Shown: positions 19,445 through 31,490, counted from the stretch's first letter. The stretch is DNA of 34,694 nucleotides from Candidatus Firestoneibacteriota bacterium (GCA_038042445.1 JBBTED010000050.1:1-34694), one strand, 5' to 3'. The notes: generated by a model not told the origin, from the letters alone. Numbers and translations: made by a program.

Positions 19445-20164
19445 TTACAGCCATCCACTTTCCCTTGCACTAGAATATCCTTTACTTCCAATAATAATAT
19501 GGTCATGAACTGATATATTAATTGAAGTAACTGCTTTTCTTAAATTTTCAGTTAATTTACGGTCTGCATCCGACGGAGTTGGATCACCACTTGGATGATT
19601 ATGAACAAATATTAAAGCAGTAGCATTATGTTTTAAAGCATTTTTAACTAATTCACGTGGATAAACTGCTGATTGATCCACAGTTCCCTCATAAAGAATT
19701 TCATCATCAATAATTTCATTTCTTGAGCTCAAATATATCACCTGAAATTTTTCTTTCTTCGCACCGGAAAGTGCATAATTGCAATAATTAAGCACATCTT
19801 TAACAGAACTTAAAATATTTTTCTTTTTAATCTGCTCTTTCAAATAAACACTTGCACTTTCTTTCACAAACTTAATAAATACAGCAGTATATTTTCCAAT
19901 ACCATCAGTTGCAACAAGTTCATTTAAATCAGCATCAAATATCCCTCTAATTCCGCCAAATTTATCAATAAGAGCCTTTGCTATTGGCTTTACATTTTTT
20001 CTTGCAATTGTAAAAGTCAAAAGCAATTCTATAATTTCATAGTCATTAAAAGCATTAATACCAGCCCTCATAAATTTTTTTCTTAACCTTTCCCTATGCC
20101 CTTTTGTAGTTTCCTGATTACTATAACCAACCATATTTTTTATACCAACTAACAGTCCTTTCAA
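19445..20164 (-). CDS. radC: RadC/JAB-domain protein
   Basis: GHRERLR, YEIIELLL, HhH (DGIG), GTVDQSAVYPRE, HNHPSGDPTPSDAD, HDHIIIG; start may be ATG 20134. Confidence 0.93.
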   Translation of the reverse strand: MKGLLVGIKNMVGYSNQETTKGHRERLRKKFMRAGINAFNDYEIIELLLTFTIARKNVKPIAKALIDKFGGIRGIFDADLNELVATDGIGKYTAVFIKFVKESASVYLKEQIKKKNILSSVKDVLNYCNYALSGAKKEKFQVIYLSSRNEIIDDEILYEGTVDQSAVYPRELVKNALKHNATALIFVHNHPSGDPTPSDADRKLTENLRKAVTSINISVHDHIIIGSKGYSSARESGWL

Positions 20165-21125
20165 TGCCTTCTTTAATTGAATATTGTGTATGAAATTTTA
20201 ATTCATTTTTTGCTTTGGAAACATCACATATCCAACATCTTTGCAACATTTCTTTTGCTTTATCTCTGTTAAAAATTGGAGATTTATTACTTAATTTACC
20301 TGTAAGCTCACTAATTAGAGCAGCCATTTTTGTAATTGTAGAAGGCATTTTAATCTCAAATGCATGGACATTTAAAACTTTGCTTATTTCATCTAAAAAT
20401 TCACATAATTTATATGGCTTTTCATCAGCCATAAAATAAATCTTCCCTGTAGAAATATCGCTTTCAGCTGCAATGATTATACCACGTACAAGATCATCTA
20501 TATAAATTACGTTTACTGTAGTATCACATATTATTGGCTTAATTCTACGTTTAACAGCCTTAAAAAAGAAAAACATATCTTCATCTCTTGGACCATAAAC
20601 TGATGGAGGACGAATAATTACTACAGGAATATGTGGCATATATTTTTTTAGTGTTTCTTCCCCTTTAAGCTTGCTTTTACCATAATATGAAATTGGGTTA
20701 CAAAATGAATCTTCATTTACTGGTTTATCATCACAATTTGGTCCAACTGCTGCCTGACTACTTAAAAACACAAATTTTTTTATATTCTTTCCATATTTTG
20801 AACATGCATCAATTAAATTCAAAGTTCCCTTATAATTTATATCGTAATATGTTTTTTCATATTTAGCAGTTTTAACTGCAGCAATATGAAAAATGTAGTT
20901 CACACCCTCAATAGCAGCTGGTAACGTTTCAGGAAATATAATATCACCTTGTACAAAATCAAGATTTAGATGTTTAAGCCACCTTAAATTACTGGTTTTT
21001 CTTGTTAAACATCTTACTTTATAGCCTTTATTTAATAATTCCTGAGCTAAATGACTACCTACAAAACCCGTAGCACCTGTAATCAAAACGGCTTTATCCC
21101 TTGACATAACTACAAACATTATCAT
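20121..21125 (-). CDS. Extended SDR (NAD-dependent epimerase/dehydratase); candidate ceramide/3-keto-sphinganine reductase
   Basis: ITGATGFVG, FLSSQAA, YGKSK (YxxxK), RPPSVYGPRD; likely start ATG 21107; divergent from spt. Confidence 0.85.
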   Translation of the reverse strand: MIMFVVMSRDKAVLITGATGFVGSHLAQELLNKGYKVRCLTRKTSNLRWLKHLNLDFVQGDIIFPETLPAAIEGVNYIFHIAAVKTAKYEKTYYDINYKGTLNLIDACSKYGKNIKKFVFLSSQAAVGPNCDDKPVNEDSFCNPISYYGKSKLKGEETLKKYMPHIPVVIIRPPSVYGPRDEDMFFFFKAVKRRIKPIICDTTVNVIYIDDLVRGIIIAAESDISTGKIYFMADEKPYKLCEFLDEISKVLNVHAFEIKMPSTITKMAALISELTGKLSNKSPIFNRDKAKEMLQRCWICDVSKAKNELKFHTQYSIKEGIERTVSWYKKYGWL

Positions 21126-21130
21126 ATAAT
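21101..21130 (+). promoter_or_regulatory. Consensus sigma70 promoter for spt
   Basis: TTGACA (21101-21106)-N18-TATAAT (21125-21130). Confidence 0.75.
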
Positions 21131-21153
21131 ACTGGCACTTTCAATAACAAATT

Positions 21154-21203
21154 CAGACCATAGACTATAGACTTCTAATAACTACAGTCTGTAGTCTGTT
21201 TTT
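21154..21203 (+). promoter_or_regulatory. Heptamer-derived hairpin with U-tract in the spt leader (attenuator-like)
   Basis: CAGACCA TAGACTA TAGACT...AGTCTGTAGTCTG TTTTT: a 13-bp stem (2 G-U) followed by T5 and then the RBS AGGGAGGT. Confidence 0.55.
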
Positions 21204-21219
21204 AGGGAGGTAAATATAA

Positions 21220-22566
21220 ATGGAAAGTACAGATTTTAAAGAAAAAACCAATCAGTTAAAACAAAAAACCAAAGAAGTATCAAATATCATTAAGCTAAAA
21301 ATGATGAAAGCTATTGAATGGGGCAAACGTGACACAGAAAAAAACTCATCTGTTATAAGCACACCAAAAACATTAGAAGAAACTGTTGATTTATTTGATA
21401 AATGCAAAAATTTCAATGTAGCCAAAAAAGTTATGGCAGCAGGTGTATATCCCTATTTTAGGGCAATAGAATCAGGACAAGACACTGAAGTGGTATATAA
21501 AGGCAAAAAACTTATAATGATTGGCTCAAATAATTATTTAGGTTTGACATCTCATCCAAAAGTAAAAGAAGCTGCAATTGAAGCCATAAAAAAATATGGC
21601 TCTGGTTGCACAGGTTCCAGATTTTTAAATGGAACATTAGATATACATGAAGAACTTGAAAAAAGATTGGCAAAATTTATGAATAAAGAAGCAGCACTTT
21701 TATATTCTACAGGATTTCAGACAAATCTTGGTGCAATTTCTGCATTGGCTGGTAAAGACGACATAATAATATGTGACAGAGCAAATCATGCAAGTATTTT
21801 TGATGGATGCAGACTGTCATTTGGAAAAACTATTAAATTTAAGCATAATGATATGGAAGATTTAGAAAGAATACTAACAAATATTAAAAATGACAAAGGA
21901 AAACTAATAGTAGTAGATGGAGTATTTAGTATGGAAGGAGATTTATGCAATCTTCCTGAAATAGTAAAATTAAGCAAAAAATATAACACCAGAATAATGG
22001 TAGATGATGCACATTCAATGGGTGTATTTGGAAAAAATGGCAGAGGCACTGCAGAACACTTTGACGTGGAAAATGATGTAGATGTTATTATGGGCACATT
22101 CAGCAAATCATTTGCATCTATTGGAGGATTTGTAGCTGCAAACGAAGAAGTTATACATTATTTAAAACACCATTCACGTGCTCTTATTTTTTCAGCAAGT
22201 ATGCCACCTGCTGCTGTTGCTACTGTTCTTGCTGCATTAGATATAATTGAATCTGAACCTGAGCGAAGAGAAAAACTATGGAAAATAACTAAAAAAATGG
22301 TTAAAGGATTTACAGATTTAGGTTATAATCTTGGCACTACTGAATCACCTATAATACCAATACTCATAGGTGACGATATGCAAACATTTAAATTGGGAAA
22401 ACTTCTTGAAGATGAAGGGGTTTTTGTCAATCCAGTAGTAAGCCCTGCTGTTCCACCAGGATATGCATTAATTCGCACAAGTTATACAGCCACACACACA
22501 GAAGAAGAAATGGATTTTGTATTGGAAAAATTCAAGAAGATCGGGAAACAACTCGGAATAATTTAA
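21220..22566 (+). CDS. spt: PLP-dependent alpha-oxoamine synthase, most like bacterial serine palmitoyltransferase
   Basis: GVYPYFRAIES, MIGSNNYLGLT, GSRFLNGTLDIH, STGFQTNLG, NHASI, DGVFSMEGD, VDDAH, GTFSKSFASIGG, SRALIFSASMPP; strong RBS; about 55-aa N-terminal extension. Confidence 0.8.
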   Translation: MESTDFKEKTNQLKQKTKEVSNIIKLKMMKAIEWGKRDTEKNSSVISTPKTLEETVDLFDKCKNFNVAKKVMAAGVYPYFRAIESGQDTEVVYKGKKLIMIGSNNYLGLTSHPKVKEAAIEAIKKYGSGCTGSRFLNGTLDIHEELEKRLAKFMNKEAALLYSTGFQTNLGAISALAGKDDIIICDRANHASIFDGCRLSFGKTIKFKHNDMEDLERILTNIKNDKGKLIVVDGVFSMEGDLCNLPEIVKLSKKYNTRIMVDDAHSMGVFGKNGRGTAEHFDVENDVDVIMGTFSKSFASIGGFVAANEEVIHYLKHHSRALIFSASMPPAAVATVLAALDIIESEPERREKLWKITKKMVKGFTDLGYNLGTTESPIIPILIGDDMQTFKLGKLLEDEGVFVNPVVSPAVPPGYALIRTSYTATHTEEEMDFVLEKFKKIGKQLGII

Positions 22567-23389
22567 TTGATATCCCTGCTAAAACTACCCCTGATATCAC
22601 ATCTATAACATAGTGATATCTTAAATACACAGTTGAAAAAATCATTGCTATAACAATAGGTAATAATATATAAAATATCTTCCGTTCATATTTATAGCTA
22701 AAATACAAAACCACCAATGGAACTGCAGTATGCCCGCTTGGAAAAACATCTCTATGAATACCTTCCAAATTAGACAATCCATCTCTAATTAAAGATGTAA
22801 AAAAAATACCTGTCAAAGGAAATGATTGCAAATGATTTAATGTATAACGTGGACCTATAGCAGGAAAAATTATGTATAATATATAATTAAAATAAAAGGC
22901 ACATAATATACTGGAAAGCACTCTATGAAATTCAGTATGTTTCCCTTTTGACAATAGTATTACTCCAAAAAATATTGGCAGAAAAAAATAGGTGCAATAT
23001 ATTATTTGCAAAATTTCGGTAAGTATTGGAAATGTAATTTTTTCAAGCCATACAGTTGGATTAACACCGAATATAAAATAGTCCAATTTTATAAGCGTAT
23101 TATCTATATCCTGCGGATTAATATATTGTATAACCTTTCCAAGCACAAAAAATGAAATAAGCAATACAGCAATAGAATACCAGTGTCTTACCGAATTCAG
23201 GATTGGATCTTTATGGTCACAAGAAATTAATCTGACTAATGAAACCATTACAGTTATTGCCAAAGTAATAGATAAATATATTTCGAAATTTGGAATTTTA
23301 AAACGAAACAAAAATATCAGCCACGCTATTATAAGCTGATAAATAATAGTTATGATTTCTTCGTTGATTTTAGAATTTGAATTTTGCAT
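22532..23389 (-). CDS. PAP2-family integral membrane phosphotransferase/phosphatase, Aur1/IPC-synthase-like
   Basis: Multiple TM helices; FPAIGPR, DVFPSGHTA, STVYLRYHYVIDVISG; the ORF-track start (23419) lies inside the HU terminator, so ATG 23389 is preferred. Confidence 0.85.
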   Translation of the reverse strand: MQNSNSKINEEIITIIYQLIIAWLIFLFRFKIPNFEIYLSITLAITVMVSLVRLISCDHKDPILNSVRHWYSIAVLLISFFVLGKVIQYINPQDIDNTLIKLDYFIFGVNPTVWLEKITFPILTEILQIIYCTYFFLPIFFGVILLSKGKHTEFHRVLSSILCAFYFNYILYIIFPAIGPRYTLNHLQSFPLTGIFFTSLIRDGLSNLEGIHRDVFPSGHTAVPLVVLYFSYKYERKIFYILLPIVIAMIFSTVYLRYHYVIDVISGVVLAGISIKLFRVVSRSS

Positions 23390-23393
23390 TTTC

Positions 23394-23441
23394 AAAAAAG
23401 ATAAGCAGTCCTGTACCATATGATACAGGACTGCTTATCTT
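23394..23441 (-). terminator. Rho-independent terminator of the HU gene
   Basis: AAGATAAGCAGTCCTGTA-N8-TACAGGACTGCTTATCTT perfect stem, with a T-run on the minus strand. Confidence 0.85.
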
Positions 23442-26529: not shown

Positions 26530-28812
26530 ATGCTTAATATTTGTGGGATATTAATATTTTTCACTAATTTTTTCGTTTATCTAAAAACATTAACACCTAC
26601 AGTATATGTAGGAGACAGCGGAGAACTCATTGCAGCAGCTGCAAGTTTAGGTATTCCACATCCACCGGGATATCCATTATTTGTCTATTTAGGCAAATTA
26701 TTCTGTCTTATATTTCCGTTTGGTTCTATAGCATTTAGATTAAATTTAATGTCTGCTTTTTTCGCAGCAGCTGCTGCTGCACTTGTATATTTTTCAAGTG
26801 TCAATTTTTTAAAAATTGCATCATCATTTTCACAAAACAACCCACAAAAAAAGCAAAAAACAAAAATTATTGCTGAATTAAATCAACCTGTAACATCTAA
26901 CACTGAAATCAATTGGATAATCTTAATACCTTCAGTTTTCTCTTCATTAATTTTGGCTTTCTCAAGATTATATTGGTCACACGCTGTTTTCGCTGAAGTA
27001 TTTGCCTTAAATGCATTTATGGCAAGTCTAACTCTTTTTTTACTCATAAAAATAGGTATTTCTAAAAGCATTTCCCTCCCTGATAAGGGAGGGTTAGGGT
27101 GGGTTAATAAAGCCTCAAATGATAACCGTATACTATATTTGTTGATTTTTACTTATGGACTAAGTTTATGTAATCACCACACTATACTTCTTGTATTACC
27201 AGCTTATCTTTATTTGCTATGGATATACAAAAAGAAACTTCATCCAAACTGGAATATCTCATATTTATTATGCATATTAGTTTTTTTTCTTGGATTAGCA
27301 TTATATATTCATCTACCAATAGCCGCAAAAAATAATAACCTTATAAACTGGGGAAACCCTAGTAATTGGGAAAGATTTTTTAGAACAATAACAAGAGCAG
27401 ACTATGGGGGAACATTTTCTATTAATCCGGTAATTAATTCTATAACAAATATAAAATTTTTCATAGACAGACTCTGGATATATATATTCACTCTTTCAAA
27501 AGAATTTATTTTTATAGGATTTATTTTTGGATTACTTGGTTTTTGGTTTGACCGCACAAGATTTTTACTTCTTTTATTTATATGCACAGGCTTAAGTTTC
27601 CCACTATTACTTACTACACCCGTATACCCAAGCCAACAAATTTTAATTGAAAGATTTTATATTATATCAATGCCGTTTTTTGCAATAAGTATGAGCTATG
27701 GAATCAGCAATTTGTTCACAAAGTTCAAACAAAAAATTCGGATTTTCAGTGTTTTAATTTTACTCATAATTGTAGTCTTTCAATTAAGTTCTAATTATTT
27801 TAAAAATGATAGAAGCAAAAATACTTTAGTATTTGATTACGGAATGAATATATTAAAATCATTGCCTCATAATGCTATTTTATTTTTAAGTGAAGGTGAT
27901 GCAATTGTTAATTCATTAGTTTATTTAAACCTAATAGAAAGCATCAGGCCAGATGTAAACATCTATGAAGCAGAAGTAAGAATATTCAAAAATATTTATG
28001 GTAATGACTACATAGGTCTATCTAAACCACAAAGAAATTTAAGACGTGAAATGGTATATAAACAATTTATCTCAGAATCCAAAAGACCTATATATTTTTC
28101 AACACAGGGAAGAACAACTATTGAAGGTATTGAATTAGAACCTTATGGTATAACTTTTAGGTCAAAATTTAAAACTGACTTGAAGAGTCATTCCTTCACT
28201 TCGTTCAGGACAGGCTCTGAGCAAAGCGAAAGATCTCAGGCTAATACTGATATGATATGGCAAATGTATAGATTTGAAAGGGTTTATGACTCAGATATTC
28301 CAAAAGACTATAGAGCACGTACTTTAGTTGCAAATTATCATTATTATTTAGCAGAATCTTATTTTGCAAAAGGTAAAACAGAAGAAGGTATCATAGAATT
28401 TAAAGAAACTACCAAAATTGCTTATGATATGGAATGGATACTAAATAACATCGGAAATATCTATGGCAAATTGAACTTGCCAGAAGAAGAAATCAAAGCG
28501 TATGAATATTCAATTAAGATAAATCCCTACATGCCAGAAGCACATTACAACTTAGGAATATCTTATGATAAAAAAGGTGAATACAATCATGCAATTATTC
28601 AGTATGAAAATGCTATAGAAATAAAACCAGATTATACAAAAGCAATATGGAATTTAGCAAGATTATATTATATGCGATTCATAAATCAGCATATTGAACA
28701 AGACAGAATTTCAGCAATTAATTTATTTGAAAAATATATCAGATATTCGCCCTATGATCAGGAAGGAATAAAACAAGCAAAAAATATAATTTATTCACTA
28801 AGTGGACACTAA
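26530..28812 (+). CDS. DUF2723 / TMEM260-like GT-C glycosyltransferase with C-terminal TPRs
   Basis: GDSGELIAAAASLGIPHPPGYP, RLNLMSA, WSHAVFAEVFAL, NHHT, NWGNP, GD motif; TPR repeats. Confidence 0.9.
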   Translation: MLNICGILIFFTNFFVYLKTLTPTVYVGDSGELIAAAASLGIPHPPGYPLFVYLGKLFCLIFPFGSIAFRLNLMSAFFAAAAAALVYFSSVNFLKIASSFSQNNPQKKQKTKIIAELNQPVTSNTEINWIILIPSVFSSLILAFSRLYWSHAVFAEVFALNAFMASLTLFLLIKIGISKSISLPDKGGLGWVNKASNDNRILYLLIFTYGLSLCNHHTILLVLPAYLYLLWIYKKKLHPNWNISYLLCILVFFLGLALYIHLPIAAKNNNLINWGNPSNWERFFRTITRADYGGTFSINPVINSITNIKFFIDRLWIYIFTLSKEFIFIGFIFGLLGFWFDRTRFLLLLFICTGLSFPLLLTTPVYPSQQILIERFYIISMPFFAISMSYGISNLFTKFKQKIRIFSVLILLIIVVFQLSSNYFKNDRSKNTLVFDYGMNILKSLPHNAILFLSEGDAIVNSLVYLNLIESIRPDVNIYEAEVRIFKNIYGNDYIGLSKPQRNLRREMVYKQFISESKRPIYFSTQGRTTIEGIELEPYGITFRSKFKTDLKSHSFTSFRTGSEQSERSQANTDMIWQMYRFERVYDSDIPKDYRARTLVANYHYYLAESYFAKGKTEEGIIEFKETTKIAYDMEWILNNIGNIYGKLNLPEEEIKAYEYSIKINPYMPEAHYNLGISYDKKGEYNHAIIQYENAIEIKPDYTKAIWNLARLYYMRFINQHIEQDRISAINLFEKYIRYSPYDQEGIKQAKNIIYSLSGH
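27072..27105. repeat. Family C repeat, in frame (SLPDKGGLGWV)
   Basis: TTCCCTCCCTGATAAGGGAGGGTTAGGGTGGGTT; 33/34 identical to 30041-30074. Confidence 0.92.
28187..28237. repeat. Nested family A repeat, in frame (SHSFTSFRTGSEQSERS)
   Basis: GTCATT[CCTTCACTTCGTTCAGGACAGGCT]CTGAGCAAAGCGAAAGATCTC, 51 bp. Confidence 0.85.
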
Positions 28813-28823
28813 AAAAAATATTT

Positions 28824-28976
28824 AAAATGCAAAATGCAGAACCAAAAATGACCCAAAGGGTCATCCTGAACTTGCTTCAGGATCTAAAAGAGATGCTGAA
28901 ATAAATTCAGCATGACAATATGGTCATTCTGAGCGAAGCGAAAAATCTCAAAATGCAAAACGTAAAATTGAAAACT
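28824..28976. repeat. Composite repeat cluster: heptamers, ATGACCC cap, family B, family A, heptamers
   Basis: AAAATGC x2; ATGACCCAAAGGGTCAT (28848-28864); family B (28860-28917); GTCATTCTGAGCGAAGCGAAAAATCTC (28923-28949); AAATGCA AAACGTA AAATTGA. Confidence 0.9.
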
Positions 28977-31490
28977 GTAACAGGTATTTTAATTTTCTTT
29001 ATTAGTTTATTTGTTTACTTAATAACTCTATGCCCTACTGTATATGTGGGCGACTGCGGAGAACTTACAACATCTGTTTATCAACTTGGTATAGCACATC
29101 CACCGGGATATCCTATTTACTGTATTCTTGGAAAAATATTCTGTGCTATTCCTTTTAGTAATATTGCATACCGTGTAAATTTTATGTCTGCGTTTTTTGC
29201 AGCAGCAAGTATAGTTTTATTATTTCTTTCACTTTTAAAAATACAAGGATTTCAAAATACCATTTTAGACTATTTTATTGCAGGCTCTGTTTCACTTATG
29301 TTTACATTTTCCAACACTTTCTGGTCCCAATCTGTTTTTGCAGAAGTCTACACTTTAAATATATTTTTTGTTGCACTCACATTTTATCTAATATTATCAC
29401 TAAAAAATACTATTGGTTTATATGTCTTTTCATTAATTTATGGTATTGGTTTAGCAAATCATAATACTTTAATGCTACTTGGGCCAATTTATATATTGTA
29501 CATAATATTTCATACAAAAACTCTGTCTTTAAAACCGAGAAATTTTATAATTTCATTATCTTTGGCTTTTCTTGGAATGTGTTTTTATTTCTATCTTCCA
29601 ATACGCTCACTTGCAAACCCTCTTGCAGATTGGGGAAATCCAGAAAATTTTAAAAATATTTTAGCGCATGTTTTAAGACAACAATATGGTTCACTTTCTG
29701 CAATTGAAAGATCATTTGCATTAACCATTAAACAACTTATTGCTTATTTAAAAATTTTAAACAATGAATTTACTGTATTACCATTAATTCTATCATTAAT
29801 TGGATTGGCTATATCTATCGTTAAAATTATACAAAAAAAAGAAGATGCAAAATTTACAGGTCTTATCACTTTATTGTTTTTATCTACAAGTATTGGTATG
29901 ATTCTTTTATTGAATTTTAAGGTAACAACACATGAGATAAATTCAGTAAAAGAATTTTTAATACCTTCATATTTTTTCGCTGCCATATTCATAGGAATAG
30001 CCATAAAATATATAATTTCAGTTGTAAAATCAAAATTTTCTTCCCTCCCTGATAAGGGATGGTTAGGGTGGGTTGCTATTGCCTTATGCACTACCGTAGT
30101 TATTACACCAATTCTTTCAAATTACAAAATAAATGATTTAAGTAAAAATTATATTGCTTATGATTATGGTATAAACACATTAAACACTTTAGACAATAGC
30201 ACTATTTTATTTTCTGCAGGTGATAGTGCCACATTTGTATTAATGTATCTTCAAATGGTAGAAAAACTAAGACAGGACTTATCCATTTACGACGATACAG
30301 GAGTAACATTCAAAAATATTTATGGTGAACGTTATTTAAAAATGTCTATACAAGAACACCAAATTCAAATGAATACAATTCAGCAACAAATATTAAATGC
30401 AAATCAAAAATCTGTGACTGAAAAGAATGGTGGAACCATATATTTCATTCTTGGAAGTAATTTACACAATATGCTTGGACTTTTGGCAAAACCAATAGGA
30501 ATAGTTTATAAAGTAGTGTCTAAAAATACACAACTAACGGACACACAAAATATATGGCAATTATACAAATTAAGAGGAATATATGATTCTACTTCAGACA
30601 AAGATTATTTAACAAAAGACTTAATTGCACAATATCATATTGCACTTGGAGAAAATTATTTTGATGCAGGTGATACAAATAATGCTAAATTAGAATATAA
30701 AAAAGCAAGTCAAATAGGTAAAGATATTGACGCAGTTCAAAGTGCAATAGCAAGTATTTTCACTAAAAAAGGCTTAATTGAGGAAGCTTTTGAAGGAAGC
30801 AAACTTGCTGTAGAAAGAAATCAATGGGATCCTGATTTGCACAATAATTTAGCAACTGCATATTTAGGTAAAGGAATGTTGGATGAAGCAATAAAAGAAT
30901 ACAAAAAAGCTTTAGAACTTAACCCTAAACTTTCAGAAGTATATAATAATCTTGGAATTACATATCTTCAAAAAGGTGATTACGAAAATGCGAAACTCTC
31001 ACTTTCTAAAGCTTGTATGCTCTCTCCAGCAGATGCACAAGTATATAATAATTTAGGTATGACTTATGCTAAACTTAATAATTTACCTCTTGCAGTTTCT
31101 GCTTATAAAAAAGCTTTAAGTATAAAACCAAATTATGTTGATGCTCATTTTAACCTTGGAAATATATATTTACGTAGTGGTGAAAATGATTTGGCACTAC
31201 AAGAATACAAATATGCAATATCATTAGCACCTACCAAAGCAGAAATATACAATAATACAGGTGTTGCTTATGGCAATAAAAAAGATTTTGACAATGCAAT
31301 AGAGTTTTATAAAAAAGCAATAGACGTAAATCCTAAATATGCAGAAGCATACAATAATCTTGCCGGCGCATATTACAACAAAGGTGATTTTAAAAAAGCA
31401 AAGCTCTTTTGGGAGAATACACTTAAATTAGACTCAACACATAAAGCAGCAAAAGAATATTTAATACAACTTGGAAATATTAGAAATTAA
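28920..31490 (+). CDS. Second DUF2723 / TMEM260-like GT-C glycosyltransferase with a longer TPR array
   Basis: GDCGELTTSVYQLGIAHPPGYP, WSQSVFAEVYTL, NHNT, DWGNP; about 7-8 TPRs; MVILSEAKNL is repeat-derived, so the true start may be ATG 28953. Confidence 0.9.
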   Translation: MVILSEAKNLKMQNVKLKTVTGILIFFISLFVYLITLCPTVYVGDCGELTTSVYQLGIAHPPGYPIYCILGKIFCAIPFSNIAYRVNFMSAFFAAASIVLLFLSLLKIQGFQNTILDYFIAGSVSLMFTFSNTFWSQSVFAEVYTLNIFFVALTFYLILSLKNTIGLYVFSLIYGIGLANHNTLMLLGPIYILYIIFHTKTLSLKPRNFIISLSLAFLGMCFYFYLPIRSLANPLADWGNPENFKNILAHVLRQQYGSLSAIERSFALTIKQLIAYLKILNNEFTVLPLILSLIGLAISIVKIIQKKEDAKFTGLITLLFLSTSIGMILLLNFKVTTHEINSVKEFLIPSYFFAAIFIGIAIKYIISVVKSKFSSLPDKGWLGWVAIALCTTVVITPILSNYKINDLSKNYIAYDYGINTLNTLDNSTILFSAGDSATFVLMYLQMVEKLRQDLSIYDDTGVTFKNIYGERYLKMSIQEHQIQMNTIQQQILNANQKSVTEKNGGTIYFILGSNLHNMLGLLAKPIGIVYKVVSKNTQLTDTQNIWQLYKLRGIYDSTSDKDYLTKDLIAQYHIALGENYFDAGDTNNAKLEYKKASQIGKDIDAVQSAIASIFTKKGLIEEAFEGSKLAVERNQWDPDLHNNLATAYLGKGMLDEAIKEYKKALELNPKLSEVYNNLGITYLQKGDYENAKLSLSKACMLSPADAQVYNNLGMTYAKLNNLPLAVSAYKKALSIKPNYVDAHFNLGNIYLRSGENDLALQEYKYAISLAPTKAEIYNNTGVAYGNKKDFDNAIEFYKKAIDVNPKYAEAYNNLAGAYYNKGDFKKAKLFWENTLKLDSTHKAAKEYLIQLGNIRN
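30041..30074. repeat. Family C repeat, in frame (SLPDKGWLGWV)
   Basis: TTCCCTCCCTGATAAGGGATGGTTAGGGTGGGTT. Confidence 0.92.

Follow-up and report, generated by a model that had tools for sequence, protein, structure and literature searches.

The window analysed here, a stretch of 34,694 nucleotides from the genome of an uncultivated Candidatus Firestoneibacteriota bacterium (GCA_038042445.1, JBBTED010000050.1:1-34694), carries three neighboring open reading frames (ORFs), which encode an extended SDR, an alpha-oxoamine synthase (AOS), and an integral membrane protein of the PAP2 superfamily. According to the ORF listing of the contig, they are arranged as follows:

20121-21125, minus strand: SDR, 334 aa; CerR-family extended SDR that would reduce the 3-keto group in (dihydro)ceramide synthesis
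21126-21219: SDR/spt intergenic region, 94 bp, with divergent genes on either side
21220-22566, plus strand: AOS, 448 aa, assigned as Spt of the "CFB" (Bacteroidota/Sphingobacterium) type, with an N-terminal extension of ~57 aa
22532-22566: convergent 3' overlap of spt and the PAP2 gene, 35 bp
22532-23419, minus strand: PAP2_3 integral membrane protein, Aur1-like, 295 aa; predicted ceramide phospho-head-group transferase

The three ORFs lie far beyond chance, with Pfam scores of 215.7 bits (Aminotran_1_2), 134.3 bits (Epimerase), and 71.1 bits (PAP2_3, PF14378; cut-off 27) for the AOS, the SDR, and the PAP2 protein, respectively, the latter also matching PAP2 (40.3 bits) and PAP2_C (27.5 bits). 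The coordinates confirm the arrangement given in a preliminary description of this DNA, i.e., a divergent SDR/AOS pair and an AOS gene that overlaps the convergent PAP2 gene by 35 bp, and every motif listed there (YPYFR, GSRFLNGT, GTFSKSFAS, SRALIFSAS, FPSGH, and RYHYVID) was found in the translations. The promoters of both SDR and spt presumably lie within the intergenic region, and the divergent order recurs in L003 and L004, the two Firestonebacteria loci, as well as in many others. The overlap is no artefact of ORF calling, since the C-termini of Spt and of the PAP2 protein both align to the ends of their relatives. The true start of the PAP2 protein is probably Met11, the second in-frame ATG at position 23389, because the N-termini of its relatives align there.

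The proposal that the AOS is a serine palmitoyltransferase (Spt), and not BioF or Kbl, is borne out by profile scores, structures, and phylogeny. Against the NCBIfam model of CFB-type Spt (NF047600) it reaches 618.6 bits, with the next-best model at 442.9 bits. This is 21 bits short of the curated equivalog cut-off of 640 bits; the same cut-off is missed by all 51 matches from the organism's own phylum and passed only by the B. thetaiotaomicron control, and the model appears to be tuned to Bacteroidota. Among PDB structures, SPT (8guh/3a2b) scores 476 bits, compared to 295 for Kbl, 220 for BioF, and 181-201 for ALAS, the comparison with ALAS being one of PDB scores only, as HemA was left out of the tree. 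In this tree, the AOS falls inside a clade of 38 Spt rows (SH-aLRT 100), which takes in E. coli BL21 spt and three sphingomonad Spts whose genomes pass NF047603. Five paralogues branch outside it, as do Kbl and BioF of E. coli; the genome's own second AOS is excluded as well. The fold is that of class-II aminotransferases/alpha-oxoamine synthases, and the PLP-lysine motif GTFSKS aligns with SPT 8guh. The alignment with S. multivorum SPT (3a2b, 8guh), a member of the same clade, extends over the full length and also retains DDAHS and VSPAVP...LIR. Judged by its sequence, the AOS is thus assigned as Spt. In contrast to the S. multivorum and Bacteroides enzymes, it carries ~57 additional N-terminal residues, which are common to Firestonebacteria relatives and also align in L004 (query residues 11-448). 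A further difference lies in the adjoining SDR gene: for Bacteroidota, the three ceramide genes are described as not clustered (PMC11334938).

The SDR shows the NAD(P)-binding motif GATGFVGSH and a Y-x3-K motif (YGKSK). Its top NCBIfam models, HpnA (171 bits, cut-off 368) and an OleD-type 3-oxo-lipid reductase (129 bits, cut-off 580), remain below their thresholds. It has a genomic partnership with spt: a homologue directly adjoins Spt in 50 of 80 related Spt loci from many phyla, and in eight of ten proteobacterial spt loci. The SDR matches "epi", an epimerase/dehydratase gene of the spt cluster of E. coli BL21, with 24% identity over 319 aa (E 4e-32), and PMC9386255 gives "epi" as the orthologue of Caulobacter CC_1164/CerR. 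A profile of Spt-adjacent SDRs scores the window SDR with 457 bits, the best paralogue of the genome with 163 bits, and proteobacterial spt-adjacent SDRs with 150-219 bits. The best SDR tree separates 25 rows of Spt-linked and proteobacterial CerR-like SDRs from 11 genome paralogues, at a weak support of 61. The earlier suggestion of a CerR-like reductase agrees with both the adjacency to Spt and the "epi" match, and the SDR can be regarded as a probable member of a Spt-adjacent, CerR-type extended SDR family, from which the split of the paralogues is weak (61). It shares this family and the partnership with spt with Caulobacter CerR and BL21 "epi". However, the Caulobacter enzyme reportedly resides in the periplasm (PMC11087976), whereas the Rossmann motif of the window SDR starts at residue 16, too early to leave space for a classical signal peptide.

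The third ceramide enzyme, a GNAT-type ceramide synthase (bCerS), is encoded elsewhere in the genome. The preliminary description had correctly noted that the window holds no bCerS homologue, and the genome-wide search it called for yielded one on another contig (C56:5571-6701). With 550 bits, this is the one match in the genome to a profile built from the 376-aa GNAT that lies downstream of Spt in 24 loci. It is 34% identical to YghO, the CC_1154 orthologue in E. coli BL21, over the full length (376 aa, E 7e-76), and thus belongs to the same family as Caulobacter bCerS (CC_1154), both systems having a GNAT of ~376-380 aa. Unlike in the BL21 and Caulobacter systems, the gene is unlinked to spt in this assembly, and the dedicated ACP/acyl-ACP synthetase genes of the BL21 spt cluster have no counterpart beside spt in the window. 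In all three same-phylum genomes examined (L207-L209), a bCerS-type GNAT and Spt form a single fusion protein of ~800 aa.

The PAP2 protein represents an uncharacterized family. Across 42 sequences, G189-P190-R191, F226-P-S-G-H230-T, and R267-Y-H269-Y-V-x-D273 are invariant, and H230, H269, and D273 of the second and third PAP2 motifs align with the motifs of Aur1. The AF2 model (pLDDT 89.2) finds its top Foldseek matches in Aur1 with ceramide (9vj4_A), Aur1-Kei1 (9ivc_A), and SMSr with ceramide (8ijq_A), with PgpB behind. Aur1 is thus nearest in fold, as the initial label of an Aur1/IPC-synthase-like PAP2 enzyme had anticipated, although the identity to yeast Aur1 (9vj4, 9ivc) is only 18%, and Aur1 pairs with Kei1, while a Kei1-like partner of the window protein is not known. 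The best NCBIfam model is that of the Bacteroides PI-dihydroceramide synthase (NF052609; BT_1522 of B. thetaiotaomicron), which aligns with residues 99-290. At 30.8 bits versus an equivalog cut-off of 480 bits, however, the two proteins are non-orthologues, and the BT_1522 gene resides within an inositol-lipid cluster away from spt, whereas the window gene overlaps spt. Among bacterial Aur1-like enzymes, only BT_1522 has been proven genetically to transfer a head group to ceramide (PMC9246714). SMSr (sphingomyelin synthase-related protein) is a ceramide phosphoethanolamine synthase, and its reaction, PE + ceramide to CPE + DAG, is the one predicted for the window protein.

We estimate a probability of about 60% that a four-enzyme bacterial phosphosphingolipid pathway has three of its members encoded at this locus and the fourth, bCerS, elsewhere, and that the PAP2 protein is an Aur1/SMS-like transferase. 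Family identities, synteny, co-occurrence, and fold were observed; alongside these, we infer all catalytic activities, the order of N-acylation and 3-keto reduction, and the head group. Spt would condense L-serine with an acyl thioester to 3-ketosphinganine, which the GNAT-type ceramide synthase (bCerS) would then N-acylate, before the divergent SDR would form dihydroceramide by 3-keto reduction. The PAP2_3 protein would finally, in the manner of Aur1 or sphingomyelin synthase, transfer a phospho-alcohol head group from a glycerophospholipid to the 1-hydroxyl of the ceramide and release diacylglycerol, using a putative His-His-Asp triad of H230, H269, and D273.

An alternative that leaves the ceramide part intact casts the PAP2 protein as a lipid phosphate phosphatase acting on C1P, a sphingoid-base phosphate, or a phosphorylated head-group intermediate. 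The superfamily consists mostly of phosphatases, automatic annotation always yields "phosphatase PAP2 family protein", and the invariant R191 and R267 could bind phosphate. Moreover, the best sequence match of the family profile in the PDB, and the sole match of the single sequence, is B. subtilis PgpB (25.3 bits, E 7e-5, for the profile), compared to 17 bits (E 0.024) for Aur1. In structure, however, phosphatases match only residues ~103-295, whereas the match to Aur1 spans residues 16-292 and scores higher, and the best three Foldseek matches are all ceramide phosphotransferases. The motifs point in the same direction: the third one reads S-T...H-Y-x-x-D, as in Aur1, versus S-R in phosphatases such as PgpB, and the lysine seven residues ahead of R191 is missing. 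The first motif of phosphatases is K-x6-R-P. In ten Spt loci, the PAP2 gene adjoins a short ORF for a membrane protein that faintly resembles CTP_transf_1 (E 0.44). This could be a lipid kinase, but it has no homologue in the Firestoneibacteriota genome. Head-group transfer is therefore favored over dephosphorylation, and the phosphatase reading appears the less likely one, though not negligible.

It is improbable that the PAP2 protein is unrelated to sphingolipids and lies beside spt by accident, with another envelope role, e.g., in lipid A or undecaprenyl-phosphate metabolism, as its weak NCBIfam matches to LpxE (24.9 bits) and UppP (21.2 bits) might suggest. The distribution of the family bears on this from both sides. 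Among the 80 loci most similar to the PAP2 gene, only four (L175 and L177 being one MAG) have Spt within 7 kb, and the neighbors in the other 76 are housekeeping genes, the gene simply following a YacP-type gene in 53 of the 80. Conversely, a PAP2 gene is found near Spt in just 10 of 80 Spt-centered loci, and at E <= 1e-10 in none of 12 same-class relatives, all of which have Spt; the synteny of the three genes is partial. Yet the two genes track each other across genomes. In 151 Nitrospirota genomes, 44 have both, four PAP2 only, eight Spt only, and 95 neither, and in 99 genomes of the organism's own phylum the respective counts are 34, 4, 17, and 44, although these counts overstate independence, since the genomes are interrelated. 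Spt is hence present in 44 of 48 and 34 of 38 carriers, and undetected in four of each, while 95 of 103 Nitrospirota genomes lacking PAP2 lack Spt as well. Adjacency recurs in Nitrospirota (<=5 kb apart in 25 of the 44 genomes with both), Geobacterales, one Betaproteobacteria MAG, Planctomycetota, and the Firestoneibacteriota genome, and four of five genomes with an unlinked PAP2 copy carry Spt elsewhere. The family as a whole extends to Nitrospirota, Geobacterales, Planctomycetota, Calditrichota, Acidobacteriota, and a Firestonebacteria-like lineage, and five Spt-bearing Bacteroidales genomes gave matches of at most 27.6 bits. We regard it as very improbable that the AOS itself uses another amino acid and forms a different, sphingolipid-like product, such as a cysteate-derived sulfonolipid or an alanine-derived 1-deoxy base. 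Its score does lie under the curated Spt cut-off, and a cysteate-C-fatty acyltransferase is fairly close in the PDB list (287 bits), but SPT structures score far higher (476 bits), the AOS lies within the Spt clade, and the partners of the ceramide pathway are retained. Among the checks run, none gave an outcome set beforehand as refuting the sphingolipid-cluster reading of the locus, which is supported.

If the PAP2 protein is a ceramide phosphotransferase, its head group probably differs from that of Aur1, as inositol-phosphate synthase (PF01658) was not found in the genome, with positive controls in six genomes. This absence is not conclusive in a genome that is only 90% complete, but it makes an inositol head group unlikely here, and the protein is accordingly classed as Aur1-like and not as an IPC synthase. 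PS decarboxylase (PF02666) is present with 157.8 bits. Taken together with the missing PF01658, the most likely donors are phosphatidylethanolamine, which would give ceramide phosphoethanolamine, or phosphatidylglycerol. More tentatively, and at somewhat less than even odds, the whole PAP2_3 family may be an unrecognized SMSr/Aur1-like bacterial ceramide phosphotransferase that forms CPE or ceramide phosphoglycerol from PE or PG. This genome would have gained it separately, given that none was found in the same-class relatives searched.

The core of Spt, bCerS, and CerR adds one further lineage to a known pathway and is the ordinary part of these observations, as bacterial ceramide synthesis has already been predicted in ~40 phyla (PMC11334938). 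Our search of the literature found no enzyme for the attachment of phospho-head-groups to bacterial ceramides beyond Bacteroides BT_1522 and the Caulobacter phosphoglycerate route, and no paper that ties a PAP2 enzyme to spt. Phosphosphingolipids have reportedly been detected in the Black Sea. The head-group step is therefore the useful part: a compact, well-modeled, Aur1-like family whose occurrence follows that of Spt across phyla provides a concrete candidate, which would aid the reading of environmental lipidomes that contain phosphosphingolipids.

The window spans the entire 34.7-kb contig C50, which is part of a 2.8-Mb MAG that is 90% complete and has a GC content of ~30%. The three ORFs that the preliminary description had assigned to a putative sphingolipid cluster were confirmed in the ORF listing, and the overall interpretation of the cluster is supported by the evidence presented here:

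20121-21125, minus strand, SDR, 334 aa
21220-22566, plus strand, alpha-oxoamine synthase (AOS; Spt), 448 aa
22532-23419, minus strand, PAP2 protein, 295 aa

The SDR and synthase genes are divergent, with 94 bp between them, and the synthase and PAP2 genes are convergent and overlap by 35 bp. Position 23389, previously taken as the end of the cluster, corresponds to Met11 of the PAP2 ORF; the proteins of its relatives begin at this residue. The remaining genes of the contig have housekeeping functions (RadC, aldose epimerase, polysaccharide deacetylase, HU, RecA, trp and gal genes). The RadC ORF, listed with TTG at 20164 as its start codon, lies on the same strand as the SDR gene and shares 44 bp with the 3' end of the latter (20121-20164); RadC may in fact begin further downstream. 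Two large membrane proteins encoded next to each other (26530-28812 and 28920-31490, both on the plus strand) both carry a TMEM260-like O-mannosyltransferase domain and, at the C-terminus, TPR repeats.

By its sequence, the synthase is an Spt, as had been proposed, rather than a BioF or Kbl. Its closest relatives (73% and 70% identity) are Spt proteins of Candidatus Firestonebacteria MAGs. Among NCBIfam models, the CFB-type Spt equivalog scores highest with 618.6 bits, compared to 442.9 for the generic BioF/Kbl subfamily, 427.7 for Kbl, 408.5 for BioF and 282.3 for ALA synthase; the equivalog cut-off of 640 is narrowly missed, as it is by 51/51 matches from the phylum, and is passed by the Bacteroides control alone. 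The top PDB matches are Sphingobacterium multivorum SPT entries (476 bits, catalytic motifs aligned), followed by Kbl (295), cysteate acyltransferase (287), BioF (220) and ALAS (~200 bits). A tree was built with 46 rows: the window protein; every third of the 74 clustered Spt relatives, 25 in all; 10 Spts from Proteobacteria together with the annotated spt of E. coli BL21; a second AOS with a high score from one relative genome; BioF and Kbl of E. coli; and six AOS paralogues with lower scores, one of them from contig C77 of the window's own genome. In this quick tree, with long branches leading to BioF and Kbl, the window synthase falls into a clade of 38 rows (SH-aLRT 100), with Kbl, BioF and the six paralogues outside. 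The C77 copy (C77:5896-7020, minus strand), the second AOS of the genome, reaches 389 bits on the Spt model and is presumably a BioF/Kbl-type enzyme, given that it clusters with a paralogue from Firestonebacteria and not within the Spt clade.

The SDR, described earlier as CerR-like, has both a Rossmann and a Y-x3-K motif. It passed none of the curated NCBIfam families: HpnA (171 bits, cut-off 368) and the OleD-type 3-oxo-lipid reductase (129 bits, cut-off 580) were both rejected. An SDR homologue directly adjoins Spt in at least 50 of 80 Spt-centred loci, several of them partial, which span Firestonebacteria, Zixibacteria, KSB1, Nitrospirota, Aminicenantes, Planctomycetota, Verrucomicrobiota, Proteobacteria and others; among ten proteobacterial loci, the same holds for eight. 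The annotated cluster of E. coli BL21(DE3), which laboratory E. coli K-12 lacks, has the order yghO, acyl-AMP ligase, epimerase/dehydratase, ACP, spt, and its genes are orthologues of the Caulobacter ceramide genes according to the available text of PMC9386255. The window SDR is 24% identical to the BL21 reductase (E 4e-32). In a tree of 36 rows, Spt-linked and proteobacterial SDRs split from 11 paralogues of the window's genome with a support of only 61, and membership in the Spt-linked/CerR family is therefore taken from synteny, by which it is well supported, and not regarded as settled by phylogeny. The identities of CerR and bCerS are based on this annotated cluster and on excerpts of PMC9386255, PMC11324152 and PMC11087976.

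In 24 of the 80 loci, Spt is followed by a GNAT protein of 376 aa, and the same GNAT is found in 7/10 proteobacterial loci within a 20-kb stretch around Spt. The preliminary description had found no bCerS in the window and considered that its absence from the genome would count against sphingolipid synthesis. A search of the genome with a profile of this GNAT identified exactly one gene, C56:5571-6701, and this objection thus falls away. The match reaches 550 bits and is 34% identical to BL21 YghO over the full length (E 7e-76); the accessible part of PMC9386255 equates YghO with Caulobacter CC_1154. An NCBIfam search with this GNAT matched 0 families. In three genomes of the same phylum, Spt (N-terminal) and a bCerS-type GNAT (C-terminal) are fused into single proteins of 797-810 aa:

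L207:1888-4278, minus strand, Spt-GNAT fusion (genome G435)
L208:1810-4239, minus strand, Spt-GNAT fusion (genome G422)
L209:2939-5353, plus strand, Spt-GNAT fusion (genome G426)

Similar open frames of ~800 aa occur in two further genomes (G428 and G436).

The PAP2 protein matches Pfam PAP2_3 (71.1 bits) and PAP2_C (27.5 bits). Among NCBIfam models, that of the Bacteroides PI-dihydroceramide synthase fits best but reaches only 30.8 bits (cut-off 480); LpxE and UppP (24.9 and 21.2 bits) were rejected as matching the last 70 residues only. Automatic annotation gives "phosphatase PAP2 family protein" only, which likewise points away from an Aur1-like reading. Across a 42-member family alignment, G-P-R191, F-P-S-G-H230-T and R-Y-H269-Y-V-x-D273 are invariant, among others. 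In the printed alignments, the family resembles Aur1 in having S-T before H-Y-x-x-D, where PgpB has S-R; however, the family sequence profile scores PgpB (25.3 bits) above Aur1 (17 bits), which is evidence against an Aur1-like reading. The family forms a different, uncharacterised branch from the Bacteroides synthase, and it was absent from the five Bacteroidales genomes with Spt that were searched, where only two matches (27.5 and 27.6 bits) were obtained.

A PAP2 homologue lies within ~2.5 kb of Spt in 10/80 Spt-centred loci (Nitrospirota, Planctomycetota, Geobacterales and one Betaproteobacteria MAG). Conversely, among the 80 closest loci to the window PAP2 (L114-L193, Nitrospirota PAP2 loci), only 4 have Spt, SDR and GNAT nearby; in 53/80, a YacP-like NYN-domain gene (~139 aa) immediately precedes PAP2 on the same strand, among housekeeping genes. 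A response regulator and histidine kinase pair often follows PAP2 in these YacP-type loci. As this reverse synteny was mostly negative, co-occurrence was tested on whole genomes instead. Of 151 sampled Nitrospirota, 44 have both genes, 4 PAP2 only, 8 Spt only and 95 neither; for 99 genomes of the window's phylum, the respective numbers are 34, 4, 17 and 44, with much of the signal coming from one family (f12). Co-occurrence is thus strong, in genomes that are mutually related and do not constitute independent tests. In 25 of the 44 Nitrospirota with both genes, PAP2 and Spt share a contig and are no more than 5 kb apart, and genomes with an unlinked PAP2 copy carry Spt elsewhere in 4/5 cases. 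The window PAP2 was probably gained separately, because 12/12 same-class relatives have Spt and 0/12 have a PAP2 of this type, and because it forms an isolated basal branch of the family tree (≤44% identity to any other member), even though the gene has the base composition of the contig.

Between Spt or bCerS and PAP2, 10/80 Spt loci contain a small membrane ORF (~194-222 aa) with an N-terminus like MKHPGRKxYHLxGG:

L011:7201-7806
L014:7324-7908
L012:7753-8421
L053:8417-9016
six more loci

It matched no Pfam family beyond a faint resemblance to CTP_transf_1 (E 0.44), NCBIfam yielded nothing useful, and no homologue was found in the window's genome; the protein may serve the same pathway, either as a CTP-dependent lipid kinase or as a cytidylyltransferase. 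Aminicenantes-type Spt loci (L021-L062) show a different conserved block around SDR-Spt, with DUF885, a FabH-like KAS III and a 160-aa ORF without family upstream, and an S55-peptidase-like protein (~600 aa) and a beta-propeller protein (~720 aa) downstream.

Because the window's genome (90% complete) gave no match to a myo-inositol-phosphate synthase domain (control genomes were positive) and encodes a PS decarboxylase, we infer that, as far as this incomplete genome indicates, the head-group donor would be PE or PG rather than PI.

For Caulobacter, the pathway of Spt, bCerS and CerR is established, and predictions extend it to ~40 phyla (excerpts of PMC11334938, PMC11087976, PMC11324152); the survey in PMC11334938 may already include the window's phylum among Spt carriers. 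B. thetaiotaomicron has a proven PI-dihydroceramide synthase that is Aur1-like (excerpts of PMC9246714). Outside the Bacteroides work, we found no literature linking a PAP2 enzyme to spt, and the accessible sections of PMC12132519 and PMC10411912 contain no such link. The ceramide genes of the window are a further example of a known pathway, and the new part is the Spt-linked, predicted Aur1-like PAP2 family, which is worth a bench test.
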